A stretch of DNA of 52,402 nt from Candidatus Kapaibacterium sp. (GCA_937936035.1 CALGXJ010000040.1:1-52402); one strand, 5' to 3'. Shown: positions 2,699 through 43,263, counted from the first letter of the stretch. The notes: a model not told the origin generated them from the sequence alone. Program-made: numbers and translations.

Positions 2699-3120
2699 GA
2701 GGGAAACCATATATATTGCTGATTTTGATGTTGCTTGCAAGCTGCGAGCTAATTGTAATCAAAACACCACCAAAGGAACGCCAGCAACGTGTGGAGCTTT
2801 CGCAACGGGCACCGCTCAGCGTTGTGATGCTGTTCAAAGCCGAACTCGACAGCAGTAATGTTTTCGGTGCAATGTCGCTTATTGCGTCGCCGGAAAAGAC
2901 AAAATACCTTGCCGAGCAACGCTACGAAAGAATCACCGATATTCAGCGTGTTCGCCGTATTTTGCAGAACAAAAAAGTAACCGAATACAAAGCAATGTCG
3001 ATTGCAGAAGATATTTCAATTGTGAGCTTGGAATTAAACTGGTTGGAAAAAATTAATTTTGTCGCTGCAAAAATCGACAGCCAGTGGTATGTAACAGATT
3101 ATAAATATCCGGCAGAATAA
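2695..3120 (+). CDS. Small hypothetical lipoprotein
   Basis: GTG start overlapping the upstream stop (GTGA). Signal peptide with lipobox LLASC. I recognise no family. Confidence 0.55.
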   Translation: MRGKPYILLILMLLASCELIVIKTPPKERQQRVELSQRAPLSVVMLFKAELDSSNVFGAMSLIASPEKTKYLAEQRYERITDIQRVRRILQNKKVTEYKAMSIAEDISIVSLELNWLEKINFVAAKIDSQWYVTDYKYPAE

Positions 3121-3121
3121 C

Positions 3122-4564
3122 CTATTCAAGAATTATCTTTTGGATTTTTGTTTCTTTTGAATTGCTAAATTTAGCAATCAGAAATCCGTTCAGCTGAATT
3201 TTCGATGCAAGATCGATTGCGGTTGAATTTCTAATATCTGTTTTATAAACAAGTTCGCCCAATAGATTGAAGATTTCTAAATTATCGTATTTTCCGAAGC
3301 AACCATTCAAATAAAACGTATTGTTCGAAAAGAATATATCCTGATTTTGGGATTTCTCGGCAACAGAGGTAAAGGCAGAGAGCTCGAAAATATGCCCGAA
3401 AGCAGAAATTCCTCTGAGGTTTTTGATTGTAACGTCAGGTATTTTGAGGTGTGGATTTTTCGGCTCTAAAACTAAATTAGCAACGACACCAGAAGTGTTT
3501 ATAAGGTTTGATTTGCTGACAGTGCCGATAGAAAATTCAATTGTATTTTGGTTAGATTTCCAGATTGAGAAAGTAGCTTTGTTTCCGTCCAAAAGTCCAG
3601 CAGGTTCAATACCGAGAACATCGAAATCGTTCAAATCAGGGATTTCAATAGTACCGGCAAGCGACAGATACGGCTGGTAAGTGCTTGCATAGATAGGATA
3701 AACGATGCTGCTGGTAGATTTTTGGACAACAATTGCAGGCAGTTCAATTTCCTGATTAGAATAATTAATTATGCTACCGGTGGGATGCTGCTTGTCGTAG
3801 TTGTAAGAAATAACCAAATTATCAATCATATTAACTTCTCCGTTGCCATCGCAATCGGCATAAGTAGCGGCGGCGGTGTCCCAGGCAATCACCGGCTGGG
3901 GAGCCCATAGGGTGCTTGCGGGCTCGCGTTTGAAGCTACGCAATTGCTTGGTATTTGGACCGAAACCTAAATAGAAGGAAACAGTGGCAAAATCGAGGTG
4001 GTTAACTATTCCATCGTTGTTAGCATCGCCGGGCCAAACGTTAACGAAGCTATGGATTGTGTAGCTAATGCTTGTAGTGGGCAAATCAAGAAGTTTCAGT
4101 TGTCCGTCGGCAACGACAGTTATCCGCGGATTGATTAAACTAAAAGTAACAATGTCGAAATGCGGAGCTGCGGGGATCACGACAAATTTCAGATTAACAA
4201 CTTTGGGATTGTCTGGGGCGTTTGTGTCGCGGGTGTAGTCCATACCGGAGCTAACGACCAATCTGCCGATGTCGTTAGAGGCATCGGGCAGCGAAAGCAC
4301 AAGGGTTTTGGTAGTGGAGCCAAATTCGCCGCGTTTCCATTCGGAGAAGCGGACAAACTGCGTTTTATTATAGCGAAGTTCGAATGAAACGTTTGTGCAT
4401 TTTTGGATATTTTCGGCAACAATATCGATACTGAATACGTAGGTAGCAGTAACGAACTTGCTTCTGGAGGAATCGACGTCGTCTCTCACAAATACGAGAG
4501 ATTGCGAGTGCAAGCAGGTTGATGCAATCAGTAATAATGTTAATATGTAAATAATTTTTCTCAT
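3122..4564 (-). CDS. Secreted cohesin-like + dockerin-like protein with a T9SS-type C-terminal sorting domain
   Basis: Signal peptide MRKIIYILTLLLIASTCLHSQ. Cohesin-like N-domain (VFSIDIVAENIQKCTNVSFELRYNKTQFVRF). Two dockerin-type Ca-loop repeats, GDANNDGIVNHLD and DCDGNGEVNMID (about nt 3797-4033). A second beta-rich module follows. The C-terminal ~70 aa (LEIFNLLGELVYKTDI...FLIAKFSNSKETKIQKIILE) look like a T9SS type-A CTD. Confidence 0.7.
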   Translation of the reverse strand: MRKIIYILTLLLIASTCLHSQSLVFVRDDVDSSRSKFVTATYVFSIDIVAENIQKCTNVSFELRYNKTQFVRFSEWKRGEFGSTTKTLVLSLPDASNDIGRLVVSSGMDYTRDTNAPDNPKVVNLKFVVIPAAPHFDIVTFSLINPRITVVADGQLKLLDLPTTSISYTIHSFVNVWPGDANNDGIVNHLDFATVSFYLGFGPNTKQLRSFKREPASTLWAPQPVIAWDTAAATYADCDGNGEVNMIDNLVISYNYDKQHPTGSIINYSNQEIELPAIVVQKSTSSIVYPIYASTYQPYLSLAGTIEIPDLNDFDVLGIEPAGLLDGNKATFSIWKSNQNTIEFSIGTVSKSNLINTSGVVANLVLEPKNPHLKIPDVTIKNLRGISAFGHIFELSAFTSVAEKSQNQDIFFSNNTFYLNGCFGKYDNLEIFNLLGELVYKTDIRNSTAIDLASKIQLNGFLIAKFSNSKETKIQKIILE

Positions 4565-4599
4565 ACTCTAAATAATTAGCAATTGATATGCCAGAAATA

Positions 4600-5583
4600 T
4601 CAATTATCGTCCACATTCAGCAATTTTTTTGCTAATTTTGCAACAAGTTTGTTCATTTCTTCTAATTTATCATCATATAATATATCGGTAACTGTTTTAA
4701 TTTTTTCAACATTATTTTCGTTAATTTTATAGAGGGAAAGGGAAATTTCGGCGGCTTCGGGCAATTGTTCGTAATTTCCGGCAATAAAATATCCAACGTT
4801 GAATTTTCGAAGTGCGTCTATTTCGTTTAAAGTAGGTAAGTTATAATTTTCAACAACGTAAAGTTTGAACAAGCTATACAAGCTATCCCGTGTTTCGAGG
4901 TCGTAAGCAACGAAATCTTTGGATTTTTTTGCAACTTCGAAAATTTCTTCGAGAGCAGCAAAGGAAGTTGTAATTCTTGTGTCGTATAAATTCCAGGGTC
5001 GCAGTCCGATTGGCAGGCTAAAACCAATTCCGGTAAGAACAAGCGTTGGTGCAGGTTTCACATTTAAATTCCCAACTTGATTAGAATATAATTTGCTGTT
5101 GTTTTTGGCGTCTGCGAATGCTCTTTGGGTGGCAGTGAGCAACGATGGGTCGAAGAGAGTTTTTTCGGTGGTTGCCCGACGATAGTTCAGATGGGCAAAT
5201 CCTTCGCCTTTTTGACGTTTTGTCGTATCGCTAACGTCCACAAGGAGCAATTCCACCCGCAGCATATTGATAAATCTGTCGGCACGCATAAAAGCAACTT
5301 CATCGGCACCTGCTATTCTGGCAATATCGAGAAGGATAGGCTTTTTCCCTTCGTTGTAGAGATTTTGAGCGATTGTGTCGCGGTCGGGCTTTTCGATGAA
5401 ATCATATTTGAGAGTAAGTCTTGTAGCAAGCGACAAAGCAGCGTCTGCCTTTATTTCGGGAATATCCTCCACTGCAACGTTTCTTCCCGCGATATAGTTG
5501 CCAAGCATAATTTTTCGTTTTTCAACTTTGGCTGAACATCCAACAATAGTAAGCATAATCAATAAAAACAGTAACTTTTTCAT
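4600..5583 (-). CDS. Hypothetical lipoprotein with two similar alpha/beta modules (CsgG/LpoB/TolB-N-like pattern; inference only)
   Basis: I chose the ATG at 5583 (MKKLLFLLIMLTIVGCSAK, lipobox VGC) rather than the track's 5673 start, which would overlap the upstream gene. It lies 7 nt downstream of the plug-like gene and 35 nt upstream of the cohesin/dockerin gene. Confidence 0.6.
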   Translation of the reverse strand: MKKLLFLLIMLTIVGCSAKVEKRKIMLGNYIAGRNVAVEDIPEIKADAALSLATRLTLKYDFIEKPDRDTIAQNLYNEGKKPILLDIARIAGADEVAFMRADRFINMLRVELLLVDVSDTTKRQKGEGFAHLNYRRATTEKTLFDPSLLTATQRAFADAKNNSKLYSNQVGNLNVKPAPTLVLTGIGFSLPIGLRPWNLYDTRITTSFAALEEIFEVAKKSKDFVAYDLETRDSLYSLFKLYVVENYNLPTLNEIDALRKFNVGYFIAGNYEQLPEAAEISLSLYKINENNVEKIKTVTDILYDDKLEEMNKLVAKLAKKLLNVDDN

Positions 5584-5590
5584 TTTATCC

Positions 5591-6904
5591 TCAATAACTT
5601 CTACTAATACTCTGCCTTGTTGCAGCAATAATTGCGTCGTAGCCACCGAAAGCAACATCTTTATAATAGACAAATGCGATGAATGAATGGTCGTTTACGC
5701 TTGTGTTGCCTTCGTATTGGTCGGTAGAATAGCGCACTGCACGGTTTCGGTAAAAGTCGAATTCGCCTGTAGCATATAGATAATTATGCACACCACGACG
5801 CACCCAAGCCCGTAGTTTGTAGTAGCGGTCTGCTTCGTCGAAATACATAATCCAGCGGTGGTCGGGCTTCCAGTTGTTGAAAGAACCGATAATAAAGACA
5901 TCTTCGCTTGTGAGCACTCCATCAGGTTCGAGCAGAAATTCCAAATAGATATAGTCGTTTGCATAATTTGGGACGCGGCTTGTAAGCATAACGCCTTCGT
6001 TGTCGTATTCGTTGAATGTGCCGTTGCGGCGTAAGTCGGAAAGAGGAAGGCGTTGCTCGGTTACACCGCGGGGGAAATATCCGAGATTGGTCAGATCCAG
6101 CACTCTATATTCGTTTTCGGCAGGAACGCCTTCAATTCTAAAAAACTTACGTGCTCCGATAAAACCCGAAACATTTCTACGATATTGATATTTATAAAGA
6201 TATGAATAGTCATCAATATCATTTCTTGATGAAACGACGAGAGGTTCTTCCCAGCGATTATTTTTATAAAGCACGCAAGTATGCACATTATTATCCAGCA
6301 GGTTCAATTTTGACCACACCTGAACATCGAGATTATAACTTGTTGATGAAACATTGTATTTAGTCGAGTACATACTATTCCAAATGCTCATAAGAGATTG
6401 TGCTCGAGGCTCGACCACAAAGAATTTTGCTTCCGCAAATTCTTCTTTATCGTTGTCGTAAGTATAAAATTTCACTTTCCAGTTGCCCGAATATTTAATC
6501 GGGATGCTAAAATCAGGAAAAGAGAAATAGCCTCTGTGCGAGAAATATGGATTTGTGTAGCCGGCTACATCCCAACGAATATTGCTAAACCGTCGGTGGT
6601 AGAGCTCCTGATAAAAAATATTTTCCGTTTCTTTCCAGTCAGCAGTGCAATGGACAAACCGTGCATATAAATTCGGAGGGACGCTTGCAAAAATATCGAT
6701 TTCCACAGTAATTTTTTCGCTACCGATATTTGTCGTATAGCCCGAGCTATTGTTCAGGACAAGGATAGGTGGCATAGTTTCGTTGTCGCCGTAAATACGC
6801 ACTCCTCGCAGCAGAGCCTCGTGCTTAGGGTCGAATTTTTCATCCTGGGCTTTGGCAGAAATTGCAATCAGTATCAGCAAAATATTTATAATTATTCTTT
6901 TCAT
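5591..6904 (-). CDS. DUF5103 / type IX secretion system plug-like protein
   Basis: Start taken at the ATG at 6904 (MKRIIINILLILIAISAKAQ signal peptide). The pattern VRIYG..PPILVLN...ITVEIDIF...YARFVHCTADW...FYQELY...YFSHRGYFSFPD...YSGNWKVKFYTYDN...AKFFVVE, plus the C-terminal carbohydrate-binding-like IIGSFNNWKPDHRWIMYFDEADRYYKLRAWVRRGVHNYLY, matches my memory of the DUF5103 (PF17116) family. Not verified by a search. Confidence 0.55.
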   Translation of the reverse strand: MKRIIINILLILIAISAKAQDEKFDPKHEALLRGVRIYGDNETMPPILVLNNSSGYTTNIGSEKITVEIDIFASVPPNLYARFVHCTADWKETENIFYQELYHRRFSNIRWDVAGYTNPYFSHRGYFSFPDFSIPIKYSGNWKVKFYTYDNDKEEFAEAKFFVVEPRAQSLMSIWNSMYSTKYNVSSTSYNLDVQVWSKLNLLDNNVHTCVLYKNNRWEEPLVVSSRNDIDDYSYLYKYQYRRNVSGFIGARKFFRIEGVPAENEYRVLDLTNLGYFPRGVTEQRLPLSDLRRNGTFNEYDNEGVMLTSRVPNYANDYIYLEFLLEPDGVLTSEDVFIIGSFNNWKPDHRWIMYFDEADRYYKLRAWVRRGVHNYLYATGEFDFYRNRAVRYSTDQYEGNTSVNDHSFIAFVYYKDVAFGGYDAIIAATRQSISRSY

Positions 6905-6942
6905 TTCCACTTGTAATACTTTCGGAAAATTTCGTTGCAATT

Positions 6943-6950
6943 CAAAATTA
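6943..6950 (-). promoter_or_regulatory. Possible Bacteroidota-type -7 promoter element (TAATTTTG on the minus strand, consensus TAnnTTTG) for the plug-like operon
   Basis: Exact match to TAnnTTTG, 39-46 nt upstream of the ATG at 6904 and downstream of the terminator of the preceding gene. I saw no clear -33 TTTG, and the promoter grammar of this taxon is unknown. Confidence 0.3.
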
Positions 6951-7050
6951 ACATAAAGATATAGACGATTAATTATAAAAGAGATTAGTAAAATTGATAC
7001 AAAAAAAGAAATATACAGAAAAAAATAAGTTTAATTAGAGGAATTGAGAA

Positions 7051-7084
7051 AATAAAAAGCAGCCCCTTCGAGGAAGGGGCTGCT
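7051..7084 (-). terminator. Rho-independent terminator of the 2148-aa gene
   Basis: Perfect 11-bp GC-rich stem GCAGCCCCTTC/GAAGGGGCTGC (7059-7069 / 7073-7083) with a 3-nt loop, 27 nt past the stop codon. On the transcribed (minus) strand it is followed by TTTTTATT. Confidence 0.85.
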
Positions 7085-7109
7085 TCGGTGTAGTTATGAA
7101 CGCAGAGTA

Positions 7110-10100
7110 TTATTTAACTCTTACAACTTCACGAGTGATAACGTATGGACCAGCTTCGATACGAACGATGTACATACCGGAAGCGAGGTTCAATCCGCTC
7201 AAGCTAACAGTATGGCTGCCAGCTGCATAAAACTTGCTGGATACAAGCGAGGCAACCTTGACACCCATAGTATTGTAGAGGCTAACCGAAACATTACCAT
7301 CTGTTGGGATAGTGAATGTAACTTTTGCTTCATCAGCGAATGGGTTAGGAACAACCTCGACATTGTAGCCAAGAGCGATTGGATCGTCGATACCAGTTAC
7401 GCTACCTTTGATTTCGAATGGACCGGAGCGGTGGTATTCGAGTTCGGGAATGTTAGCGTAGATAGCACGAATCCAAGCGTTCTTAGTATTAACATTTGGC
7501 ACCATCCAGTCGAATGAACGGAGCGATGCTTTGTATTCGCTTGCAAGAGTATTCCAGGTAGCGCCGTTATCGATAGAGTATTGCAATGTGAATGTATTAA
7601 CGTTTTCGTGAACCCAACGAACCGGACGTTTTTCTCCGAAGTTGAGTTTATCGTTTGCACGAGGATTAGTAATAACGAGTGTGCCGGAGAGAATTCTGAA
7701 TGGTTCGGAAACTGCGAGCACTTTACCAGTTGCAACATCAACCATACGAACAACGGCGTTCTTAGTGTTTGCAGCAGGGATAGTCCATTCAACTTCTTCT
7801 TTGTTGGAGCTAACAGATCCGGTAACAGCGGTCCAGCCATCAACGCCGTTAGCGGAGAATTCGAAACGAACATTAGCGTTGTCTTTCGAAATCCAGCGGA
7901 TGAAGTCTTTTTTGCCGCTTGTGTAGATAGGATCGGTGGAAGCAGGACGAGTAATTTCAGCTGGGACAGAGAATATAGTAAATACAGCGTCGCTTCTATC
8001 GAGTTCTTTGCCAGTAGCAGCATCGAGCAAGCGAACAAGCATTTCGCCGGAATTGAGACGAGGAGCAATCCAGTTGAAGTTTAATTTAAGAGCGTCAACA
8101 GGACCTTGGTTAATACGGACCCAGGAAGCGCCGTTGTCGGCTGAATATTCGAGATACAAAGAAACGCCTTCAACATCGAGAGGAGCAGTCCAGTTGATAG
8201 TATACATAGAACCGCCTTCCCAAACTTCACCGCCATTAGGAGCAACAACAGCAAAGTTCTTAGTGATGATGATAGGTTTAATGTCTTCGAATACGCCAAC
8301 GCCAGTGATAATTTTGCCGTCTGTGGAGAGAACAGCGCAAGTATTGCTCCAGTTGAAGAATATGCTCTGATCTTTGCGTAAGAGTTCGAATCTCAAAGTG
8401 CCGAGATAAGTATTAACTCTTGGAACAATTTGACCTGGGCGACGTGTATATGCATCCCAATCAACTTCGATAGAACGGGTGTTTGGCACCGGAATATCAG
8501 TTAAATTAGTTGGTGAAGTGTAGATCGGACCGTAGCCTAAATCAGAACGGTTGTCGAAAATAACTTCGTTGAGTTTCACAAGTTCAGCAAAACGAACAAC
8601 AGTTGGGTCGAAATTGATTGCAAAAGTAGCATTTGCAAGAGCAAAATCAGCACCGGTATTGCGAATGTAGATAGGAACATCTACGAAATTACCGTTAAGC
8701 TGAGGCATAGCAATAACACGGTATGATAGACCACCAGACTGAGTTTGGTCGTATTTGCTGATAGTAGTTGAAGGATGAATTTCGCCACCTTCGTTGAGAT
8801 ATGATTTAGCATCGGCAATGAGGCGTTTCGAAAGTTCAGGAGCAAGAGGATAGTAAACGCTCATTGGGTCTGCGTCAGAAATGTAAGCAAACGGGTTGCT
8901 TTCGATAGAATTAGTAGTTTGTGGATAAACGTAAGCAGTATTCAAAGCAAGGTTGCGAAGTGATGAAACTTTGTTTGTATTGTTATCAACGATAGTTCTA
9001 TCGATAGCGTTAGCAACGTTGTCGCCGTTTACGTCGTTGGATGGATCAGTAGAAAGAGCATTTACGCGAACTTTAGCACGGTCAGCTGCATTGATCTGAC
9101 CATCACGGTAGACGTCGCCACCAACCATAGCTGGCAATGAGTTAGGACCAGTGATGTTGTTTGCTGCGCCACCATCGTTAAAGTTCAAGCCAGTTGAAGC
9201 CCACTTGGAGTTGTAGCGGTCAGGAGTATAGTTTTGTTCATCGGCAAAAGCGGTATAGCGGGAGCCATATGCCGGAGGTTCCTGACGAGCTTCTGTAGAA
9301 GTAATTAAGTTGTTGTCGGTTCCGTCCCAAGCCTGGAAGTCCCAACCTGATTCAACAGCCCAGGTAGAGAGGTCGTCGCCAACATAGTAGAATGGAGCAG
9401 CGTAAGCCGACATCACTGGCAAGTAGTTCAAGTGATCAACAACCACGAAGTAGCGACCATCAGCAACTTCAGTAAGAACGAAAGGAACGTTAGCGAAGTT
9501 GTTAGCGCCGGCATTTCTGTTTGTAATAAGTTTCGATTGAGTAAAGTTGTAGTATTTATCTGTTGAAAGAGCAGTGCTATTAGGAACATAGGCACCAGGA
9601 ACGCCGGAATTATCTTCGAACAGGCGAATTCTCAAACCTTTGTTGGAGAAGTTAGTACCAATGTTGTTCACAATACCGCCAGCATATCCGCCGTGGTAGC
9701 CATCGAGAAGTACGCGAACAGTGAAGTTGCTCGGAGGAGTAATGTTGAATTGAGCACTTTCGCTGATAAGAGTTTGCATAAAGCCATCAGTGCCGTTATC
9801 ATATTCTAATGCATAAGGAGTGTTGATGTTGGCGCGGGCACGAAGTCTTAATCTTCCGTTTGTCATAGCAGCGCCGATAACGCTTTGGTCGTTGTAGATA
9901 CCGTCTTTGTTAGCGTCTGGGTCTGCAATTGAGCAATTGAGAATACCAGCATATTGTGGTTTTGAAGCAACGCCTAAAAATTCATAATCAGCAGTAGCGG
10001 TTGGGAGAGCGAGAGCATTTGTGTATCCAGCATTTTGGTAAATGCTCGAAACAAATTGATAAGGAACGTTAGAATTGCCAGCACCACCGCCAGTTGAGAA

Positions 10101-13100
10101 TTCTAAGTCAGCTTGTTTGGATGATGAACCAAAAGAGAAAGAAATTCCATTATTACGGTTATAGTCGAAACCAATCCAGCGAACTTTGAGAGCAGTTTCA
10201 GTGTTTTTAACGGATTGCAGATAAACTGGTTCAACTAGTTTAATAAATGGAGTAGTTGATTCGTAGTTTGCAGTTGGATCTGGATTAATACGAGCAACAA
10301 GGTCAGCATCGTAAGGAGTCATTTCGAATGCACGAGCTTTGCCGTAGTTGACCCAGCTATTACCGTTGAATGAGTATGCAGCGATGAGGTTCTTAGTGTA
10401 GTCGACGCCGCCGAATACGCCGAGCTCACTTGCGCGGACGTTAGCAGCACCTTGAACGAATTTAATCATATCGTCGATAGTAAGCACACCACCGGGGTTG
10501 CCTCCCCAGAAGCGTAATTCACGGAATTCGCCATCGAAACGACGGCCGGTAGTTGTTCCGATAGTTGGTTCGTAGCCAATGTAAACTGGTGAAGTGTTTG
10601 TTTTATCAACAGTAATGCCAGAACCGAGCTGTCTCATAATCGGGTTAGTTGCTTCTAATGCATCGTTGCGAGTCCAGGTAAGCTGAGGAACACCATCAAC
10701 GAAGAACAGGATTTGTGATTGTGAACCAACTGATGGAATATTTACCCAAACACCAACGTGAACCCAAACTGAATCGAATTCAACCCTGTTAGGATTGAGT
10801 ATTCTGTAGATTGGGTCGCTCACAGCAGTGCGAATAGTTGGAGTTCCGTTGTCGAGTGATGAAACTACGAACTGCAACTGACCTGTTGGGAGAAGTCTCA
10901 AAGCATAGTGAAGAGCAGCAGCTTCTGTAGTAGCATTTGGATTCTTCTTTGCAACTATTGGATAGAAGTTACCTTCGGTATTTTGAGGGAAGCTATAAGG
11001 TTTGATCCAAGTTTCAAGGAAGAAAGTTTCGCCAGTGATATTGAGTTTAGTATTTTCAGGAATGCTTACAATAGAGTTCTGACCATTTTTGTAAGCGAAC
11101 CAAGGAGCAACTTTGAAAGGTTGCGAAATATAATAAATATCTTGCTGGTTGCGAGCTTCGGAACCGCTTATTTTCATCAGAACATCTTTTTCGTAGTTGC
11201 CAACAAATGGGATAACGCCTTGCAGGTCGTTCATCATACCGGAGGAGGTAACGTTGTTGTAAGGTTCCCACAAAGCATAAGCATCTTCAACTTCAGCGTT
11301 GTCGATAGGCATAGCAGGAGTTTGATTGTCCAAAGCGTCGAACCAGGTGTTGCCACCATCGCGGCTAATCTGGATCATTACGTCGCCGTAAGTTGGACTT
11401 GGTTTAGGAGTTAAGCTACCAATACCATAGGAAACCCAGCGAATTTCATATATTTTACCCTTCAAATTGCTTACACCTTCGCCACCATTTGGAGAAGTAA
11501 GTTTGATATGAGAGCGATCCGGACGGTAGCGGATAGCATCATTGTTTGGAGTGGAAGTCAATCCGGGAGTTGTAAAGAAGTTCAAGTCGTTGTTGCTTTG
11601 CTGATAGATTTTTTCGTTAGCTTTGTCGAGACGAGAAGCCTGCAATGGGAAGTAGAGCTCGAGCCCGGTGCGCCAGTCGTTTGGACCATCAGTGATAGGA
11701 GTAATTGTGCCGTTAGGATCGTAAACGCCCGGGATATAGCGGCGCAATTGACTTTGCTCTAAAGCGTGACGCCAAACTTTAACTTCTTTGATACCACCAT
11801 AGAAGTAATCTTGAGGTCTCATACCGTTGTTAGGATTAACGCCAACCCAGATAGGCATTTTAACATTCAACGGACGAATATTCGGAGCGCTCGTATTTTT
11901 GTAGCGGGCAACTTCTTCGCCATCTACATATAATATAACTGTATTATTCGAAACAACGCCAGCAAGGTGAGTCCAGGAGAGTGAATGCTGGTCTGTTAGA
12001 TTAGGATTGTTGCCATATGGGAGCAATGGAGCTGGGCAAACAACATCGCCAAGCACACTGCCATCAGATGCAGACACACGGAATGCCGGATAAATACCAT
12101 CGCGAAGATAAAGCATCCAGCCCAAACCTGCATCCGATGCGGAGCCGGAGCTTGCAGCAACTATAGCAGGCGTGCTGCCGGCACCATTCGAAGTGTTCAG
12201 ATTAACCCAAGCTTCTACAGTAAATGAGTTCGGAGTAGAGAAGTTTCTAACAGTACGGAAATAAGTGGAGGCACCATCAAATTGAACGAAGAACAAACGA
12301 CCAAGTATGAAAGTCTGGTCAGATTCGTCCATTCTTGTTGAACTTGTGTAAGCAGGGCGGCTGCTTTCGGCGAGGCTGCCGCTTGTACCTTCAAGTTGAG
12401 TTATTCTGATTTTTGCAATTTCACTTCTGAACGGGAAGTTGTCGTCTGCTTTCCAGATAACACGGAGGACTCCACCGTAGCCCCAACCAAGTAGACCAGG
12501 ACCATCGGGTTCGTCTTGCAATAAGCTGGAGGCAACGTCATTTGGCAAAGGTTTAACTGTTCCGGTTGTAACAAAGTAGTCGTCTGTTGCATCGAGGGAG
12601 TCTATCCAGCCTAATCTGTATGTAGGCAAATCAGCAGCAGCGATAAGAGAAGCTTTGTCGCGGCTTTCAGCAACGCGTCCAAATTCAGTATAAGTAGCGC
12701 CTCCATCGAGCGAATACTCGAGGCGATATGCAAAGCGGCGTGTTCCGTAAGGTTCTGCTAACGAAGGAGATGCAAGCCCGGAACGTTCAAAGTAAATCGG
12801 ATAACCGCGATTTGTGCGCATTGATTGGTATGGAGATTCTGGATAACGGTTCACTGTTTGATTAAGTTGATTTGGATTGAGAACTGTAATACCACGAATT
12901 GTAAACGGAGCCGGGTTAACAAATTGAACTTGGTTTGTAACGTTAGTAAGACCATCGCCACTCATTACAACAGTAGTATTGAGCGAAGTGTACGGGTTGA
13001 ACTGAAATTCTGCTAAATCGCTGTCAGTTAAAGCGTTTGCATTGAGAATATTGAAGCGAAGAAGTCCGATAAACGACCCGCGTCCGGTGGAAGCAGGAGT

Positions 13101-13556: not shown

Positions 13557-13691
13557 AATTTGTTCCTTTTATTTTTATAAACACAATTTCTTTTTGCTTT
13601 GGCTTTGGGCTATGGGTTTCCATAGCATCCAAGCACTTTTTGTAATTCCATTTAAGAAGTTATTACAAAGAACTTTTCTTTCCCGGATTGG

Positions 13692-13720
13692 GTGTGCCTC
13701 CAAAAATGTGGGAGGCACAC
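13692..13720 (-). terminator. Hairpin between the two giant genes (possible weak terminator or attenuator)
   Basis: Perfect 10-bp stem GTGTGCCTCC/GGAGGCACAC with a 9-nt loop, 25 nt past the stop of the 2434-aa gene. No U-tract follows on the minus strand, so termination efficiency is uncertain. Confidence 0.35.
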
Positions 13721-13744
13721 TTTCCGAGAACAAACCCAATGCCC

Positions 13745-16700
13745 TTACGGTGTTACCGAATAAATTTCGCTACCATAGGTTGATACTTGCAGTACATATT
13801 CTTCGCCAGACTTAGTCCAATAAGTGCCGTCGCTGCTGAATATACGAACTGTGTAAGTACCTGCTGGTAGACCGTTTATTACAGCCGCTTCACTTGATTT
13901 TCCACTCAAAGTAGAACGTCTGATGCGGCGTCCGGTTGTATCGTAGAATTCTAATGTATAGTCGCCGGCGAGGTTAGTAAGTTTAACTCTTACATTCGGA
14001 GTTGTGCTGGCAACGTTGAAGTTGAACCAATCTTCGTCTGTCGAGCTCTTGATGGTGCCACGAATTGGCGTGTTGGTTCCAATTGCTTTTGAAAGAGCTC
14101 TTGTATTGTTTGTTCCGAACGTTACGTCGTCGTCGTAGCTACCAGTTGTTTCGAATGATTTAGGATTGCCAGCGGCGGCCACAGTGCGATAATTTTCGTT
14201 ACCATCTGTGCCGTTGTATTCGAATACATATACGTAGTATTTAGTGTTTGGTGCAAGACCAACAACATTAATACTTGATCCAGTTCCGTTGTATAGAACA
14301 GTTGCACCGCCGATGCTCGACCCCAGACCAACGATTTGATTTCCGAGGTAAGTTTCGCCGTTTTGTGGATACTCTGTGAGTTTAAGTAGAGTGTCTGGCT
14401 TAATAAGGACAATTCGTGCAGCACCACCACCATTAGTCCAGCTGATAGTAGCAGTAGTAGCAGTTATATTTGTAAATGCAAGAGCTGTTGCTTGCGAAGT
14501 TGGAGCAGTCGGAAGAACGTCGAAGAGTTGGCTGACACCTGATAGCACTTCGCTTGCGGCAGCTGAGTCTACACGAAGCTGATAGTTTCCACCAGCAGCT
14601 GTTATCGAGAGGCCGTTCAATGTGACGTATGACTGTCCAACCGGAATAATACTGGAAACATTAGCAAAGCCACCAGCACCTTTTTGTTCTTTTAGAGTGA
14701 AGCTGAACGGAGTTGAAACGTTTACTGCTTGTCCATATTCGTTCTGCAATTGAACTGTTACGCTGAATGCCTGATTGACAACAACTGGCAGTGGTTCAAT
14801 CTTAGTAATCACAAGCTTATTGCCGGTTACTTTTATAGCTGCATCTTTAGCTGCGTCGGTGTTGGCAGTTGCAACAAAAATAGCCCAATCGCCAGTCAGA
14901 GCAGACGAACCTTTAATCGGGAAGTTGGTCATCGAAAGCACTTGCGAGCCATACGAAGCGTTGTTGCGGTAGTCTTTCCACGAAGTGCCAAGCCATTTAG
15001 CAGCAAATGTTGTTCCATTTGCAGGAGTTAAGCCGTTATGTATTGTATTAGGCCATTCGAAGTTTACACGAAGGCTATCGTTTAGAACAGTACCTTCAGC
15101 TGTAATGTCCCACAATGCGAGCAATGCACGGGTTGGGTCGCCACCTTTGCCTAATGTTGGGTTCACATAATTTGGTTTAACTACAACAGCTTGCTGGCTG
15201 GACGAATTCGCAAATCTGATTACTACGGGTATATATTGACCACCAATACCGACATCAAATCTTGTATTTGAATTTGTTACGTAGCGGCGCATATTGCCAA
15301 TTACATAGGCACTTGATGAAAATGTCGGCAATGTTGCACTTGGTCCGAATGTTAATATATTATTATTTGTAGTAATGCTGAATGCACCAGTGAGTGTCCC
15401 ATTAATGCGTAAATCACCGGCTAAATTGATTGCAGCAGCAATTGTCAAGTTGTTTACTTCGTTATTGCGGAACATTGAAGCAGGAATTGTAAGGTTTGCA
15501 ATGTTTGGCAATACAACAGTGGAACCTGTTCCTGCCTTAATTCCGCCCGAAATCATAACAACGTTAAATGATGTATTGAATGTTAATATGTAGCTACCGA
15601 GATCGAAATCATTTATACCTGTGTTGACGCGTAGATACGATGTATTAGCAATATTCAAGTTGCCACCTAATGTTTCCTGACGAGCAACTTCGAGCTGAAC
15701 AGTTGTAGCTGCAGTACCAACAAAGTATGAGTTGCTCAAACCGTTTGTAACTGTTCCAGTGCCTTGCAATACAAGACGTGAATTAGTTAAACTACCATCG
15801 AGCAATCCAGTAGTTCTTGTCAAGTTGCCGTTCAATATGAGCTTCATCGGAGTTACTGCACTTGCGCCTGTTCCGATAGTCAAGTTAGCAGCTGCAAGGT
15901 CTAATGTACCGTTTACAGTTAGGTCGTTTGCAGTAGTGTGAGCAGCATTTATTGTTAAGTTGTAGAGAGTCGGCACTCCACTAACAGTAAAGTATGAATC
16001 TTCGAGCAATGGAGTTAGGTGGTTTGTAGCAACAACGTAAGTGCCAGTTCCGCCATTGATTACGCCATTGAGGCGGCTGATAGCACCGGCGCCGACAGTC
16101 AATGTACGGCTTCCGATGTTCAAAATACCGTTTGTGAGAACGAAGTCGTGGTTGGCGTTAGAAGCTATTGTAGCGTCTAATTCGAGTAAGAGCTCTGAAT
16201 TAGCGGATTTATTTAAAGTAAGATCGGCGAATTGTATTGGAGTAAGAGCAGATGTGGTGCCAGTAATCTTCTGAAGGGTGTTCCCGTTGAAAATTATTCT
16301 ACTTGCAGTGTTTGGAGTTGCAAAGTCCATGCTTGAAGTTCCATTAATAGTGAGATCGCCAGCGATAAACAGTTCTTGCGCCTGGTTTGGAACAGTAAGT
16401 GCGGTTGCACCTTGTGTAAGAATGCTACTGAATTGAGTGGAAGCCGGGGAAACGCTTGAGATTTCAGGAGCAGCACCAGTGAAAGTAATTGTGCCAGCAG
16501 CTGCAGTGAATTTGCCACCTGCACCTGAATTCAGGAATGTGTTAGCACCGGTTCCGGTAATTGTAAAGTCGGATGAAGTTGCAACTTCGTTGTTTGGATT
16601 GGCTGCAATTACGATTGTTCCAAATTCAAGTCGTCCTGCGGATGACTTAGTTATAGTCTTTGGATTGCCAGCGGATACGCCAACTCCAACGTCGAATGTG

Positions 16701-19700
16701 ATTACTGAAGCGGCGGAACCAACATAAAATTCGCCAGTTCCTTCAACTTCAATTCCTGCACCAAGTGGATTTGTTGCGTTGTTGCGAATGGTGAAATTGT
16801 GGTTTGTAGTAGTTGTGAGTTTGGAGCCATCTGCAACTTTGAGTTTGAAGAAGCGGAGAGTTCCGGCTGCGTTGATTGATTTTTCCTGAATGTTTTCGAA
16901 TGTGATTGTTCCGCCGTCTGCAAGCAAGGATGCAGAAGCACTAACAACCAAGTTACCCTTTATCTTCCAGCTGTCGGATGTATTAACTGTAAAACCGGCA
17001 GCAATTGTCAAATTGTTGAATTCAAGTGTTTGGTTCGAAGCATTGTAGATGTTACCATTGCCGGTAAATTCGATTGTTCCGTTGTTTGCTTTCAAGGAGC
17101 CATTGCCTAAAACATTTATTTCGTTTTGAACTTGGAAATTGCTGCTTGTAACAACTTTGGAGCCGTTTGTAACTTCAAGAGCGTAGAAAATGAGATCAGC
17201 AGGAGTTTGCGTATTAACTATTTCGCGCTGACCGAGGTTGCTGAATACTATGCGGCCCGATGTAGGAGCAAAAGCATCAGTGCCATATTGGTAAAAGTTG
17301 CCTTGAATATAAGCAGTTCCTAATGGAGCGAAGTCTTGAGCACCGCCAGAAGAATTCAACTCGACATTGAAGAGTTGTAGTGTGCCACCATTTTGAACTG
17401 TCCAAGGGTCGCCAGTGCCAGAAAGAGCTGTTGTGAAGTAAGTTGTTCCACCAGTTGCATCGAATTTAGTACCATTGAGAATTTCGAATCTATCAGTAAC
17501 TGTGATATTGCTTTGAGTGGAAACATTTGCGTTGTTGTCTGTGCGGATAGTAGTGAAGCTCAGGAATGCCGAAGCAGGAACGCTAATTGTTTGAAGTGCG
17601 TCGTAGCCACCCCAGAATTCAGCATTTACACCGGATACTGCACTATTAGCAAGAAGTGCAACATCGCCGCTAATACGGATTCTATTTGCCGAGCCAGTAA
17701 CATCTGCTGCATTAACAGTAAGATTGTGCACCCAGATACCGCTACCAGTTGTGTAGTTGTTGTTTACAGAAATAGTTGAGCTAACTCCGGCTGTTGTGCC
17801 ATCGCCAATTATTAAGTTAAGACGGCCAGTGCCATTTACACCGAGAATTTCTGAGCCGGCTGCCAAAGTAATATTGCCCATAACACGCAACGAGACAACG
17901 TCGCCATTTACTGTATTGTTGGCTGGTTGAACTGTTGCATTAGGATGGTTCAGAACAAGAGTTTTGCATTCATAAATTGCACCATTACCGTTTACTGTAA
18001 CAGTGGCAGGACCGATCACAACCTGGTCAACTTTTGTTGGAACGCCCGATGGGCTCCAGCTTGCAGGATTGCCCCAGTTGCCGCTTGTGCCAACGAATGT
18101 ACGAAGCACACCACCATCGCCAGGTGCAGCTGCAAGAGCATAGTAATTCGCAGTTGCAATATTTACGCCTGTTATAGCTAATTGACCTTTGCCTGCTACT
18201 GGTGTATTTTCAGTTACAGTTCCGGAAACTTCGGTCGGGCTTGTAACAAACGTATAGTCAGTTGTGTGATATAATTTTAAATCTGCAGCGTTGCTGTATA
18301 ATTCTGTGTTGTCGAATGCAAATGTAACGGATGTAACGTTTCCAGTGCCTGTGATATAATATATTCTATGAGTTGCAAGACCTACACCTGCAATAGGAAC
18401 AGTTCTCGGATAGCGGCGAACCACAATACCGGTTGGACCAGCTATCGAAGGAACACCAATGCCGCTTGTTTGTATATTTGCAGCAGTAGTGCCGGCTGTT
18501 GCAGTTGTTACATAGCCAGTCGTTGACGAACTCAAGCCTGTGTTGATAATTGTGTTGCCAGCAGTTTCAGAAATTTGAGCATTTACATCTGCAAGTGTAA
18601 GAATAAAGCCATTTAGATCTAAATCGCCGAGAGTAATTGTCACATCATTGTTGGCAGCAACTCCATCGCCAACAGTTAAGCCAGCCATTAGCTTCATACC
18701 ATTTGGACGATTGAGAGTTAATCTACCTAATGTAGTAACGGCTGCAGGCAAAACAAACTGAGAGGAAGTGCCTTGAATAGAGAGAATTGTTGATACACCG
18801 GTTGTATAAGTTCCACTACCAATTAATTGCCCGTGCAAAGCAATTGTTCCACCAGCACCGTTTAACGTTAATGTTCCGGAATTTGACACATCGCCATAAA
18901 CGGTGAGATCGAAGGTGGCTTTATTGAATGTTGCACCAGTAGCAGCAGTTAAGTTGCCATAGAGTGTGAGAGCACCGCCTAATGTTGTTGTAGCGGTTGT
19001 TATAGTTAAATTATTCAGTGTTGTAATAGTTGCGTCTATTGTTGCTGCTGCACCCATCTGGAAGTTTGTAGTTTGATCTGTAACAATTGCGTTAGCAACA
19101 AAAGTTGGAGCACCATTGAATACAACTGTGGAACCCTCGGTTGCATCCATAATAAAGTTTGCGGCAGCAGCAGAAGTGTATGTGCCGCTGAGTGTTAATG
19201 TGTAGCCATTGAGTTCAAATCTACCAGAGGCAAATTCCGTAGCTGTAATATTACCAGCAATAGTCAAGTTGCTATTTAAGATAACTTTGCGAGCAACAGC
19301 ACCACGATTTACTATTAGCAAATTCAATTGAGAAATGCTCGAAGGCAGTTCAATATCGCTTGTTTGAGTGGAGAGCACGCTCAATGTTGTATATTGGTTT
19401 GTAAGGATGCTACCTGTGAATGTGTAGTTACATCCAGCTGCAATAACAATCACAGGTTCATCAGCACCATTGCCACCGTTAGCGGTGATAGTACCGCTAC
19501 CAGCGAGGCCTGTTGTAAACGTGATACCATTGTTAGCAGTTGTAACTGATGAAAGGTCTAATGTTCCATTAGAAGCAATTGTCGTTGTAGTTGTAACAGT
19601 ATGTGCCTCATCTGGCAGAGCAACAGTGCCAGCAGTTATAGTCAATGCATTAAATGTAACAGCAAAAGCACCAGATACATTAAATGAAGAATTAGGTCTG

Positions 19701-21049
19701 TTTAGTGTAAAATTACCAAGGTTTACTGCTGCGATAATAGTGAAGTTAGTAGGCAAGCTACCGCTGCCGAGAATTTCAAAGGTTGTTGCAGCAGTTGTAG
19801 TAAATGTGCCCCAGTTAGTAACTGCACCATATAGTTTAACTGTGGAGCCAGTAGCATCAAATGTTGCCCCAGTATTGTCGAATGCACCGTAAACTGTAAA
19901 TGTGTTAGCACCTACTGTTGTAGTGAATGTTGCTGTATTTGTGAAGTTTCCATATACTGTTACATTTCCTGCAAGAGTGGCATCGTTTCCAAAGGTTAAA
20001 TTGTGAACAGTGAGAGATGGAATTTGCTCACCAGCTGCAGTTTGTGCAGCACTAAATGTTAAATTTGTATTTGAGTTTGTGTTGAGCGTAAGGTTTGTGA
20101 ATGTAACTATTCCTGAGAATGTAACAGTTGAGCCAAGAGCGTTAATTGTAGCGCCAGCGGCTGCACCAGCTACTGTGCCTGAAAAAGTAGATGTAGCGTT
20201 ATTTATAGTAAGAACGCCAGTTGCTGGGATAGAGAGGGCTGCTGTGAAGGTGTTTGTAACACTACCACCAGTAGAAATCAATGTACCGGTAAGAGTGATT
20301 GCGCCGGTGAATGTGCGTGTATTTGAGCCGGTGGATGCGGCATTGAGAGTGGCGCCTAAAGCTATATTAGATGTTGTTGTTACAGTTAAATTGTTATTAC
20401 CAACGATTAATGTGCCTGCTGTTACTGACAATGTAGTTGTTGTAGTAAGATTATCTGAAAGAGTACAAGTTGAACCGGGTTTATTAACAGTTAATGAATT
20501 AAGTGTAGTCAAAGTAGCAGGCAAAGTAACAGCAGTAGTACCAACTAATGATAAATTTGCGGGAATTGTATTAGTAATTGTAGCAGTGGATGATTTTGTC
20601 CAGGTACCGCTTAGGGTTACTGTTGCAGCAGCAGTGCTGAAAGTAACATTTGAGGTGTCGTTCTGCACAATATCGCCGCGATAGGTGGCATTACCAATAT
20701 TTACGGCAACTGCGGCATTAATTACAAGCGAAGAAGTTCCGTTTAGCGTGATGCCGCCTGTGCTTGTTGTTGCAACATCTGCATTTTGTGTAATTGTTAA
20801 GGTTGAGTTACCATAAATACTGATTGTGCGGGCAGTAATTGCAGCAGAAGTAGTAACTGTGAACCCGTTTGGGATAATTGCATCATCCGCACTTGTTGGA
20901 ACTATAGCTGGAGACCAGTTTGTTGCTGTATTCCAGTCGTTAGTACCTCCAACAAATGTTATGGTAGCAGCGGGGAGCAGCCCCGTGCTTAAAAAAGCTA
21001 AGATAGTGACTATAAGACTTAATCTTAGCAATCGGTTTTTCTTTTTCAT
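13745..21049 (-). CDS. Giant (2434 aa) secreted adhesin-like protein: two beta-helix-like repeat modules, then Ig/FN3-like and PPC-like C-terminal domains; no recognisable T9SS CTD
   Basis: Intact 7.3-kb ORF. Signal peptide MKKKNRLLRLSLIVTILAFLSTGLLPAA. The motif G..(N/D)W......WSP..VP occurs twice (nt ~20864-20960 and ~18030-18106). Long Thr/Asn/Gly/Ala-rich quasi-repeats. FN3-like ISWTNGGGAARIVL...KYYVYVFEYNG (~14147-14512). PPC-like STDEDWFNFNV...GDYTLEFYDTTG...AGTYTVRIFSS (~13778-14137). Confidence 0.9.
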   Translation of the reverse strand: MKKKNRLLRLSLIVTILAFLSTGLLPAATITFVGGTNDWNTATNWSPAIVPTSADDAIIPNGFTVTTSAAITARTISIYGNSTLTITQNADVATTSTGGITLNGTSSLVINAAVAVNIGNATYRGDIVQNDTSNVTFSTAAATVTLSGTWTKSSTATITNTIPANLSLVGTTAVTLPATLTTLNSLTVNKPGSTCTLSDNLTTTTTLSVTAGTLIVGNNNLTVTTTSNIALGATLNAASTGSNTRTFTGAITLTGTLISTGGSVTNTFTAALSIPATGVLTINNATSTFSGTVAGAAAGATINALGSTVTFSGIVTFTNLTLNTNSNTNLTFSAAQTAAGEQIPSLTVHNLTFGNDATLAGNVTVYGNFTNTATFTTTVGANTFTVYGAFDNTGATFDATGSTVKLYGAVTNWGTFTTTAATTFEILGSGSLPTNFTIIAAVNLGNFTLNRPNSSFNVSGAFAVTFNALTITAGTVALPDEAHTVTTTTTIASNGTLDLSSVTTANNGITFTTGLAGSGTITANGGNGADEPVIVIAAGCNYTFTGSILTNQYTTLSVLSTQTSDIELPSSISQLNLLIVNRGAVARKVILNSNLTIAGNITATEFASGRFELNGYTLTLSGTYTSAAAANFIMDATEGSTVVFNGAPTFVANAIVTDQTTNFQMGAAATIDATITTLNNLTITTATTTLGGALTLYGNLTAATGATFNKATFDLTVYGDVSNSGTLTLNGAGGTIALHGQLIGSGTYTTGVSTILSIQGTSSQFVLPAAVTTLGRLTLNRPNGMKLMAGLTVGDGVAANNDVTITLGDLDLNGFILTLADVNAQISETAGNTIINTGLSSSTTGYVTTATAGTTAANIQTSGIGVPSIAGPTGIVVRRYPRTVPIAGVGLATHRIYYITGTGNVTSVTFAFDNTELYSNAADLKLYHTTDYTFVTSPTEVSGTVTENTPVAGKGQLAITGVNIATANYYALAAAPGDGGVLRTFVGTSGNWGNPASWSPSGVPTKVDQVVIGPATVTVNGNGAIYECKTLVLNHPNATVQPANNTVNGDVVSLRVMGNITLAAGSEILGVNGTGRLNLIIGDGTTAGVSSTISVNNNYTTGSGIWVHNLTVNAADVTGSANRIRISGDVALLANSAVSGVNAEFWGGYDALQTISVPASAFLSFTTIRTDNNANVSTQSNITVTDRFEILNGTKFDATGGTTYFTTALSGTGDPWTVQNGGTLQLFNVELNSSGGAQDFAPLGTAYIQGNFYQYGTDAFAPTSGRIVFSNLGQREIVNTQTPADLIFYALEVTNGSKVVTSSNFQVQNEINVLGNGSLKANNGTIEFTGNGNIYNASNQTLEFNNLTIAAGFTVNTSDSWKIKGNLVVSASASLLADGGTITFENIQEKSINAAGTLRFFKLKVADGSKLTTTTNHNFTIRNNATNPLGAGIEVEGTGEFYVGSAASVITFDVGVGVSAGNPKTITKSSAGRLEFGTIVIAANPNNEVATSSDFTITGTGANTFLNSGAGGKFTAAAGTITFTGAAPEISSVSPASTQFSSILTQGATALTVPNQAQELFIAGDLTINGTSSMDFATPNTASRIIFNGNTLQKITGTTSALTPIQFADLTLNKSANSELLLELDATIASNANHDFVLTNGILNIGSRTLTVGAGAISRLNGVINGGTGTYVVATNHLTPLLEDSYFTVSGVPTLYNLTINAAHTTANDLTVNGTLDLAAANLTIGTGASAVTPMKLILNGNLTRTTGLLDGSLTNSRLVLQGTGTVTNGLSNSYFVGTAATTVQLEVARQETLGGNLNIANTSYLRVNTGINDFDLGSYILTFNTSFNVVMISGGIKAGTGSTVVLPNIANLTIPASMFRNNEVNNLTIAAAINLAGDLRINGTLTGAFSITTNNNILTFGPSATLPTFSSSAYVIGNMRRYVTNSNTRFDVGIGGQYIPVVIRFANSSSQQAVVVKPNYVNPTLGKGGDPTRALLALWDITAEGTVLNDSLRVNFEWPNTIHNGLTPANGTTFAAKWLGTSWKDYRNNASYGSQVLSMTNFPIKGSSALTGDWAIFVATANTDAAKDAAIKVTGNKLVITKIEPLPVVVNQAFSVTVQLQNEYGQAVNVSTPFSFTLKEQKGAGGFANVSSIIPVGQSYVTLNGLSITAAGGNYQLRVDSAAASEVLSGVSQLFDVLPTAPTSQATALAFTNITATTATISWTNGGGAARIVLIKPDTLLKLTEYPQNGETYLGNQIVGLGSSIGGATVLYNGTGSSINVVGLAPNTKYYVYVFEYNGTDGNENYRTVAAAGNPKSFETTGSYDDDVTFGTNNTRALSKAIGTNTPIRGTIKSSTDEDWFNFNVASTTPNVRVKLTNLAGDYTLEFYDTTGRRIRRSTLSGKSSEAAVINGLPAGTYTVRIFSSDGTYWTKSGEEYVLQVSTYGSEIYSVTP

Positions 21050-43061: not shown

Positions 43062-43263
43062 ATTCAGGCAAAATAATTATTGGATAAAAATTCAAATTTA
43101 TTTCTTACTCGATAAATTTTTATCGGTAAATTCAAATATAATCAAAAATTATTATAAATATAAACGTCGATCAATAATAATTTCGTAAATATATTGAAAA
43201 TTTATTGAAAAAAAACAATAAATACTTAAATTTGCTAAATTTTCACTTTAATTGGAGAAAGCT

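Follow-up and report, generated by a model that had tools for sequence, protein, structure and literature searches.

Is a run of five co-oriented genes for exported proteins in Candidatus Kapaibacterium sp. a dedicated surface-assembly locus, and if so, of which kind? The genes occupy positions 3122-21049 of the 52,402-nucleotide (nt) stretch of DNA that we analysed, which we call the window and whose positions we use throughout; related loci carry L numbers. A first-pass annotation had described two giant secreted proteins followed by a trio consisting of a type IX secretion system (T9SS) plug-like protein, a lipoprotein and a 480-amino-acid (aa) protein, and had taken the five for a single dedicated locus. 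The reading that we favour, with moderate confidence, is that the region consists of two T9SS transcription units and represents a lineage-specific variant of the known T9SS, not a new machine. Unit 1 (3122-7010) would be a three-gene operon encoding the plug, the lipoprotein and the 480-aa protein, and unit 2 (7056-21049) would encode two giant adhesin/lectin-like surface proteins. For the trio the neighbourhood is a functional one, and in a loose sense for the giants too. To our knowledge, T9SS has been studied almost exclusively in Bacteroidota.

The gene structure is established, as are the domain and fold identities, the operon spacing and the synteny patterns given below. We called five open reading frames (ORFs) on the minus strand: a 2434-aa ORF (13745-21049), encoding a Thr-, Asn-, Gly- and Ala-rich secreted giant that has an fn3 domain close to its C-terminus; a 2148-aa ORF (7110-13556), encoding a predicted T9SS cargo of lectin/adhesin-like type; the plug-homologue ORF (5591-6940; 449 aa from a TTG codon); the lipoprotein ORF (4600-5673; 357 aa, also from TTG); and a 480-aa ORF (3122-4564), encoding a predicted T9SS cargo or accessory protein with cohesin-like, dockerin-like, cohesin-like and C-terminal sorting domain (CTD) modules. 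Alignment with homologues places the likely true start of the plug gene at ATG 6904 (gene 5591-6904, 437 aa) and that of the lipoprotein gene at ATG 5583 (gene 4600-5583, 327 aa); with these starts, 7 nt separate plug and lipoprotein genes and 35 nt separate the lipoprotein gene from the 480-aa gene. As read from the sequence, all five products begin with a signal peptide, and the 327-aa protein carries the lipobox LTIVGC. An intrinsic terminator on the minus strand (7056-7086; 14-bp stem with 8 GC pairs, followed by a T-run) lies 3' of the 2148-aa gene, between it and the trio; it is kept in L093 and absent in L001 and L002. On the other side of this terminator, about 100 nt 5' of the plug gene (6905-7010, minus strand) align with L001 and L002 and are a probable promoter region of the trio. 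The five genes occur in identical order in L093 and L094, independent assemblies of the same species from other samples. The arrangement is therefore not an assembly artefact, and a misassembly of the window is ruled out. The strand, terminator, gaps and signal-peptide or lipobox motifs noted in the first-pass annotation are thus real.

The first gene of the trio encodes a plug homologue. Its product matches PF17116 (T9SS_plug_1st) with 39.2 bits against a cut-off of 23.9 (E 7.8e-10), aligns with positions 20-383 of the 385 of NF052315 (E 5.7e-25), and matches the PDB entry 4r7f over its full length (residues 56-429, E 5.4e-10). The 437-aa protein, proposed at first pass as a DUF5103/T9SS-plug-like protein, is by these matches a full-length plug homologue, predicted to be periplasmic and equipped with a signal peptide. 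The role of the plug at SprA is known from work on Flavobacterium, reviewed in PMC10202324. By homology, the plug would seal the periplasmic mouth of the SprA/Sov translocon when neither cargo nor PorV is bound. Among the ORFs of the window that were scanned, we found no further T9SS gene, SprA included.

Comparison of related loci showed that the trio holds together while its surroundings change. In L001 and L002, whose plugs are about 91% identical to that of the window, conservation covers the trio and the housekeeping genes downstream of it. DNA homology 5' of the plug gene extends there for about 100 nt and ends before the terminator, and the 10 kb upstream of the plug contain no match to either giant. 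L095 keeps the trio, with a lipoprotein 72% identical, next to a different downstream flank. L004 also keeps it (plug 62%, lipoprotein 44% and 480-type protein 49% identical), with both flanks different and the giants absent. The plug-lipoprotein gap is 3-8 nt in L001, L002, L095 and L004. By these comparisons, plug, lipoprotein and 480-type genes form a conserved tight operon, seen in three flank contexts (that of the window, L095 and L004). The giants, which the terminator separates from the trio, have a linkage of their own: in the distant metagenome contig L019, a large ORF homologous to the C-terminus of the 2434-aa protein, a 2148-like gene and a 480-family gene are collinear, at 32-41% identity and without plug or lipoprotein, and in L008, 5.6 kb separate a 2148-like gene from a 480-type gene. 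The 480-type protein of L019 is the closest outgroup to the trio clade. The linkage of the trio and that of the giants are thus separable, which makes the 480-type gene the element common to both. A single conserved five-gene island was rejected on the distribution of the giants in L001, L002 and L004. The idea of a dedicated locus finds support for the trio; for the giants it draws on their linkage with 480-family genes, in the distant relative L019 and, less closely, in L008. The five-gene order itself was recovered in L093 and L094. Unit 2 would be linked to the 480-type gene in some lineages and be dispensable beside the plug operon in the closest relatives. As to contig ends, L003 stops inside the plug gene and L095 begins 232 nt before the plug, the region taken up in the window by the giants. 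The giants may be a place where assemblies tend to break, in which case their absence from short contigs is uninformative.

These data bear on whether the neighbourhood arose by chance, with scattered T9SS cargo and an unrelated envelope lipoprotein lying beside a plug gene in shallow, neutral synteny. Such an origin would accord with the giants not being conserved beside the plug, with the distant members of the lipoprotein and 480 families being found in many unrelated contexts, and with CTD proteins being common near the 480 family in these genomes (5 of 78 neighbours). However, the trio persists after replacement of both flanks, its proteins retaining 44-62% identity and its plug-lipoprotein spacing remaining short, the 2434-like, 2148-like and 480-like genes remain collinear at low identity, and the adjacencies of the 480 family to SprA and PorU-like genes described below are independent of one another. 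We regard a chance neighbourhood as very improbable.

The second product of the trio had been described as a two-module lipoprotein, and its AlphaFold2 model (pLDDT 91, predicted template modelling score 0.85) indeed consists of two alpha/beta modules. Foldseek relates them to the TolB N-domain, LpoB, PelC, GNA1162, CT253 and HpaA, with a probability of 1.0 for the first five and template modelling (TM) scores, normalised to the target, of 0.44-0.55 per module. According to this model, the 327-aa lipoprotein is a tandem of TolB-N/LpoB/PelC-like alpha/beta folds. It has no Pfam, NCBIfam or PDB sequence match; identification as GldB, GldD, GldH, PorE, PorK or PorW was rejected, with no NCBIfam or Pfam match to any of them at E<=1 to 10 and no PDB sequence match. 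The family comprises 201 representative clusters at 50% identity, all unnamed or 'hypothetical'. We propose that it is a lineage-specific outer-membrane lipoprotein that may act at the periplasmic face of the outer membrane. In two loci with a distant lipoprotein gene, an ORF of about 220 aa without a Pfam family (L005:9181-9846, L006:9143-9805) precedes that gene, together with a 1450-aa BcrAD_BadFG/DUF2229 gene, in the place of the plug. This ORF was considered as a truncated plug and rejected, tblastn showing no similarity to the plug.

We then resolved the 480-aa protein into its parts. Its AlphaFold2 model (pLDDT 90.5) has four modules, all encoded on the minus strand. The first is a beta-sandwich (residues 22-176; 4037-4501) whose best Foldseek matches are cohesins: 2vo8, 2jh2 and 5nrk_A at TM 0.74-0.76, and the cohesin dyad 3l8q at E 3.5e-8. 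The PF00963 cohesin hidden Markov model (HMM) does not match the 480-aa protein even at E<=10, and 1 of the 120 relatives listed for it carries PF00963. A true cohesin fold is confirmed at the level of the model. The second module (residues 178-255; 3800-4033) is dockerin-like, with a PF00404 match of E 6.7e-8 and 33 bits, above the cut-off of 22.9. P178, G179, D180, D191, D237, D239, G240 and D248 are invariant and both calcium loops constant among 108 family members; the module is atypical in that a spacer of about 45 aa separates these loops. A second cohesin-like sandwich (residues 287-398; 3371-3706) was recognised in the model and by hhalign, which relates it to the first with E 8.8e-4. 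The last module is a T9SS type A CTD (residues 411-479; 3128-3334). As a single sequence it reaches 19.8 bits with TIGR04183, under the cut-off of 23; the family profile, built from 108 relatives, matches the CTD chains 8glk_D (E 2.3e-7) and 8glj_D at the E 2e-7 level, and many relatives carry PF18962. The CTD is thus confirmed by profile comparison at the family level only. An exact sequence look-up of the 480-aa protein returned no match, and NCBIfam and Pfam models of PorZ and PorU do not match it. The family numbers more than 200 clusters at 90% identity, has a constant length of 450-500 aa, and is found in Ignavibacteria and Kapabacteria. Sec and then T9SS, the latter by way of the CTD, would export the 480-aa protein for display on the cell surface.

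The tail of this protein is not peculiar to it. We searched the ORFs of metagenome loci with an HMM of the dockerin-like module of the 480 family, and it matched many other ORFs, whose products, 400-2400 aa long, include PKD, FG-GAP and C25-peptidase proteins. A type A CTD follows the module at a distance of 168-202 aa (median 180) in at least 30 unrelated T9SS cargo ORFs; examples among L036-L092 are L048:7037-11032, L055:460-4188, L064:794-4807 and L088:6158-11044. This dockerin-like module is divergent, spans about 85 aa and shows the motifs VWPGD...ADCDGNG; in none of the eight cassette ORFs scanned did Pfam Dockerin_1 match at E<=0.001. Between it and the CTD stands a module for which hhalign gives a probability of 72% and E 3.3e-5 with the second sandwich of the 480-aa protein, and E 4.4e-4 with the first. 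Judging from these alignments, T9SS cargo commonly ends in a tail of dockerin-like, cohesin-like and CTD modules, and the 480-aa protein is a cohesin-like head on that tail. The 1629-aa ORF L088:6158-11044 combines Peptidase_C25 and DUF11 with the dockerin-like cassette and a CTD; by these domains it is a second PorU-/gingipain-like protein with the same tail as the 480 family. We found no paper describing the cassette, the 480 family or the lipoprotein family in the literature searched.

That order and spacing are fixed speaks more for one built-in structural unit than for the two halves of a plug-in system. The cassette looks like an intramolecular stalk, most likely a calcium-stabilised stalk or presentation unit ahead of the sorting signal, on which the cohesin-fold head of the 480-aa protein would sit. 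The alternative, put forward at first pass, is a plug-in surface assembly: the cohesins of the 480-aa protein, acting as a mini-scaffoldin, would bind dockerin-like modules of secreted proteins such as the 2148-aa adhesin, while its own dockerin would bind another cohesin, yielding a non-covalent surface complex encoded beside the gene for a secretion gate. We consider such an assembly unlikely. It draws on a cohesin fold that is true in the 480-aa protein, on the invariance of the dockerin calcium loops across the family, on the relatedness of the dockerin-like modules in the 2148-aa and 480-aa proteins, on the adjacency of 2148-like and 480-like genes in L019 and their proximity in L008, and on the precedent of CTD-bearing cohesin/dockerin proteins in Cloacimonadota (PMC8542988). 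It is weakened by the recurrence of the cassette at fixed spacing in unrelated cargo, by the atypical insert in the 480-aa dockerin, by the absence of any catalytic domain from the five proteins at the thresholds used, by the unproven state of the cohesin in the 2148-aa protein (both below) and by the absence of the giants beside the trio in the closest relatives.

The 2148-aa protein is the better defined of the two giants. It carries two Laminin_G_3 domains (the first, a LamG/ConA-like lectin domain, at residues 428-603; 11748-12275, minus strand; PF13385 E 1e-25) in addition to Ig-like repeats, and ends in a T9SS type A CTD (residues 2069-2145; 7122-7352, minus strand) that scores 38.9 bits with TIGR04183 against a cut-off of 23, and 30.1 bits with PF18962 against one of 27, making it a clear predicted T9SS cargo. 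Residues ~1477-1530 (8967-9128, minus strand) form a dockerin-like module with two motifs resembling calcium loops, GDVYRDGQINAAD and DVNGDNVANAID. In the window, Dockerin_1 scores 14.9 bits in the 2148-aa protein, under the cut-off of 22.9 (E 0.031). At the homologous position of its orthologues, which are 41% identical over the full length in L019 and 46% identical in a partial sequence in L008, the values are E 1.8e-4 with 22.1 bits against that same cut-off and E 0.021, respectively. The module aligns by hhalign with the 480-family dockerin (probability 90.6%, E 1.3e-6), and the 2148-aa protein probably carries a related dockerin. A cohesin in the same protein is unproven: PF00963 gives E 0.018 and 15.7 bits, under its cut-off of 24.1, profile-profile comparison with the 480-family sandwiches and the cassette module gives only E 0.017-0.09, a three-orthologue profile of the candidate segment has no PDB match, and a homologue search with that segment returned two fragments only. 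The first-pass annotation had assigned sorting domains, dockerins and cohesins to both the 480-aa and the 2148-aa proteins. The sorting domains hold in both, above cut-off in the 2148-aa protein and at the family level in the other; the dockerin holds in the 480-aa protein and, under threshold yet backed by orthologues and hhalign, in the 2148-aa protein; the cohesin holds by fold, with a silent HMM, in the 480-aa protein and is unproven in the 2148-aa protein. The LamG domains that it suggested looking for are present in the latter.

The 2434-aa gene is present in L093 and L094, and its product shares 30-32% identity, over the C-terminal ~350 aa, with the L019 ORF upstream of the 2148-like gene. 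The protein has an fn3 match (E 1.9e-5) and a C-terminal beta-sandwich (residues 2314-2411; 13817-14110, minus strand) that may be a PPC/collagen-binding-like domain or a degenerate T9SS CTD. Its match to the PPC/collagen-binding domain of ColH, 3jqw, is weak (E 1.6e-3); TIGR04183 gives 21.2 bits (E 2e-4), under the cut-off of 23, and the CTD HMM of the 480 family gives E 1.2e-6, with the matched region stopping 23 aa short of the C-terminus. BLASTP detected neither internal repeats in the giants nor paralogy between them. We also scanned the five proteins for catalytic domains and carbohydrate-binding modules (CBMs), at E<=10 for the 480-aa protein, the plug and residues 36-357 of the lipoprotein ORF (window 4600-5568), and with NCBIfam at E<=1 for all five. 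None of these families rose above threshold in any of them. At E<=10, the 2148-aa ORF has a single sub-threshold Glyco_hydro_16 match in its LamG region (E 0.028, 14.3 bits, cut-off 22), and the 2434-aa ORF has a non-catalytic Pur_ac_phosph_N match on its fn3 region (19.8 bits, cut-off 30).

Outside the trio, the 480 family has other T9SS neighbours. In L015, a gene for SprA/Sov (TIGR04189, 752 bits) lies directly upstream of a 480-family gene on the same strand, and in L024 the same position is taken by a gene for a 1965-aa PorU-family C25 peptidase with a CTD; no more T9SS genes were found downstream of the 480-type gene in either locus. The tie of the 480 family to T9SS is thus broader than was known at first pass. 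Together with the plug clade, there are three independent adjacencies to T9SS machinery among about 20 deep lineages, which is suggestive of a link between the 480 family and the machinery and not decisive. Genes of the flagellum (flagellin, FliS, FliD, FlaG, FlhA) also lie a few genes from 480-family genes, at L008:1911-5356, L015:10849-12749, and L018:140-2248 and 4147-6100; the 480-type proteins of these three loci are only 30-36% identical to one another.

One could infer from the T9SS adjacencies that the 480 family is an unrecognised component of the T9SS machinery or attachment complex of Ignavibacteria and Kapabacteria, PorZ- or PorU-like in function, with the lipoprotein as the periplasmic partner of the plug. 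In keeping with this, its length and architecture are constant in more than 200 clusters, its immediate same-strand neighbours include the plug (in one clade), SprA and a PorU-family sortase in lineages that are 30-40% identical to one another, and the trio operon has been retained through rearrangements. Yet T9SS genes adjoin it in only about 3 of about 20 deep lineages, the 480-aa protein resembles PorZ neither in sequence nor in fold, its tail is the cassette of ordinary cargo, and the distant homologues of the lipoprotein are unlinked to T9SS genes. We rate a role in the machinery as quite unlikely.

Several observations weigh against the two-unit T9SS reading that we favour. The NF052315 score of the plug, 88.2 bits, falls below the NCBIfam equivalog cut-off of 100. 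Lipoprotein homologues at 36-40% identity do not adjoin a plug, so that the link of this family to T9SS may be one of shallow synteny. Most 480-family loci have no T9SS-machinery neighbour, their neighbours being unrelated; flagellar genes recur near the family about as often as T9SS machinery does; and against a rough expectation of about 0.4 adjacencies, the P value of the three observed is only about 0.01. The stalk reading is based on the fixed spacing in cargo ORFs. Surface display, the role of the lipoprotein, the function of the stalk and contacts between the products are inferred.

Three leads nevertheless follow for T9SS outside Bacteroidota: an uncharacterised lipoprotein family whose translation is apparently coupled, in one clade, to that of the plug gene, a cohesin/dockerin-like CTD family that recurs beside plug, SprA and a PorU-like sortase, and a dockerin-like/cohesin-like/CTD cassette common to many unrelated cargo proteins. 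In Porphyromonas, cargo is attached covalently to anionic lipopolysaccharide (A-LPS). A bolder conjecture, to which we give little credence, is that Ignavibacteria and Kapabacteria hold T9SS cargo on the surface by a non-covalent cohesin-dockerin mechanism, in which the 480-aa protein would be a dedicated T9SS accessory and its cohesin head the receptor for the pre-CTD dockerin-like cassette of many cargo proteins, the 2148-aa adhesin included, and the translocon gate would gain a new periplasmic partner in the plug-linked lipoprotein. If this were true, cohesin-dockerin anchoring would be an alternative to covalent A-LPS attachment. Should the cassette or the 480-aa protein serve for attachment, T9SS cargo would have a second means of anchoring; otherwise, the locus is a lineage-specific arrangement of known parts.

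The locus is bordered by housekeeping genes, as had been noted: one flank encodes LepA, signal peptidase I and a hydrolase, and the other a two-component system (response regulator and histidine kinase), ZnuA, RecG, LeuRS, MnmE and MnmG. A mobile or horizontally acquired island is unsupported, with no tRNA or Rfam match, hence no RNA gene, in the window, and with a GC content raised only slightly, at 0.43-0.46 in the giant genes (window 8001-20000) versus about 0.40-0.41 in the flanks; the rise is likely due to the Gly/Ala/Thr-rich composition of the giants, not to foreign origin. A 141-aa ORF without a family match (window 2695-3120, plus strand) converges on the 480-aa gene with a 1-nt gap and is also conserved in L001-L003, L093 and L094. 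The predicted mature N-termini of three of the products start with Gln (Gln21 of the 480-aa protein, window 4502-4504; Gln26 of the 2148-aa protein; Gln20 of the plug), and Gln21 is near-invariant across the 480 family. These residues fit the 'Q-rule' of pyroglutamate N-termini reported for Bacteroidetes, for which Ignavibacterium album has a high Q-value (PMC5837995). Elsewhere in the window, a 628-aa ORF (43252-45138, plus strand) carries a cyclic-nucleotide-binding domain at its N-terminus ahead of a class II fumarase/aspartase (Lyase_1 and FumaraseC_C) and looks like an unusual regulatory fusion, and an 887-aa patatin-POTRA-Omp85 protein (32619-35282, minus strand) has the architecture of PlpD-type (type Vd) secreted phospholipases.

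How does the locus compare with known systems? The initial statement that no characterised system has this composition was too strong, because CTD-bearing cohesin/dockerin proteins have been described in 'Ca. Stygibacter', of the Cloacimonadota, where they are inferred to form cellulosome-like complexes (PMC8542988). Like the organism studied here, it belongs to the Fibrobacterota-Chlorobiota-Bacteroidota (FCB) group and combines cohesin and dockerin modules with a T9SS CTD for surface attachment; in contrast, it has a 3755-aa scaffoldin with tandem cohesins and CBMs, and dockerin-tagged enzymes. The five proteins here have neither enzymes nor CBMs above threshold, and their cohesin- and dockerin-like modules stand side by side in one small protein, as a common pre-CTD cassette. 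Dockerin-tagged enzymes, a multi-cohesin scaffoldin and a substrate-binding module, which would mark a cellulosome-like assembly, were not found among the five; only two cohesin-like modules are established, both in the 480-aa protein alongside its dockerin. The Melioribacter genome paper reports no dockerin or scaffoldin domain in any cellulase gene and reads this as absence of a cellulosome (PMC3534657). Cohesins also occur outside cellulosomes, in a survey by Peer et al. 2009 as cited in PMC8542988. Those of Clostridium perfringens (2vo8, 2jh2) and Archaeoglobus fulgidus (2xdh) come closest in structure to the 480-aa model (TM 0.72-0.76), and likewise place cohesin/dockerin modules outside cellulose degradation; the 480-aa protein differs from them by an identity of only 9-15% with a silent Pfam cohesin HMM, by the long inter-loop insert of its dockerin and by its terminal T9SS CTD.

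Two further likenesses are of arrangement or of neighbourhood. In the XDoc dyads of type II/III cellulosomal dockerins, a dockerin is permanently paired with a neighbouring Ig-like sandwich as one structural unit; the cassette, which we read as a comparable unit of dockerin and sandwich, has the reverse order, with the dockerin first and the sandwich second, and would resemble the dyads in arrangement. PorU and PorZ bear CTDs and are secreted by T9SS, yet are parts of the machinery, in the attachment complex. A 480-family gene directly follows a PorU-family gene in L024, but the 480-aa protein has no sequence or fold similarity to either of the two. For the 327-aa lipoprotein, the TolB N-domain, LpoB, PelC and GNA1162 share the alpha/beta fold of each half, and the lipobox too; it differs from them in being tandemly duplicated, with no detectable sequence similarity. 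The system closest to the operon is that of SprA/Sov and Plug in Flavobacterium johnsoniae (PMC10202324). Our host, an uncultured bacterium, differs in belonging to the Ignavibacteria and not the Bacteroidota, the plug score lies under the equivalog cut-off, and the plug is here the first gene of an operon with a lipoprotein and a cohesin/dockerin-like CTD protein, a combination of which we found no description in the literature searched. The likeness lies in the 437-aa protein, which carries a signal peptide, aligns with the plug family along its full length and would, by homology, shut the periplasmic entrance of SprA.

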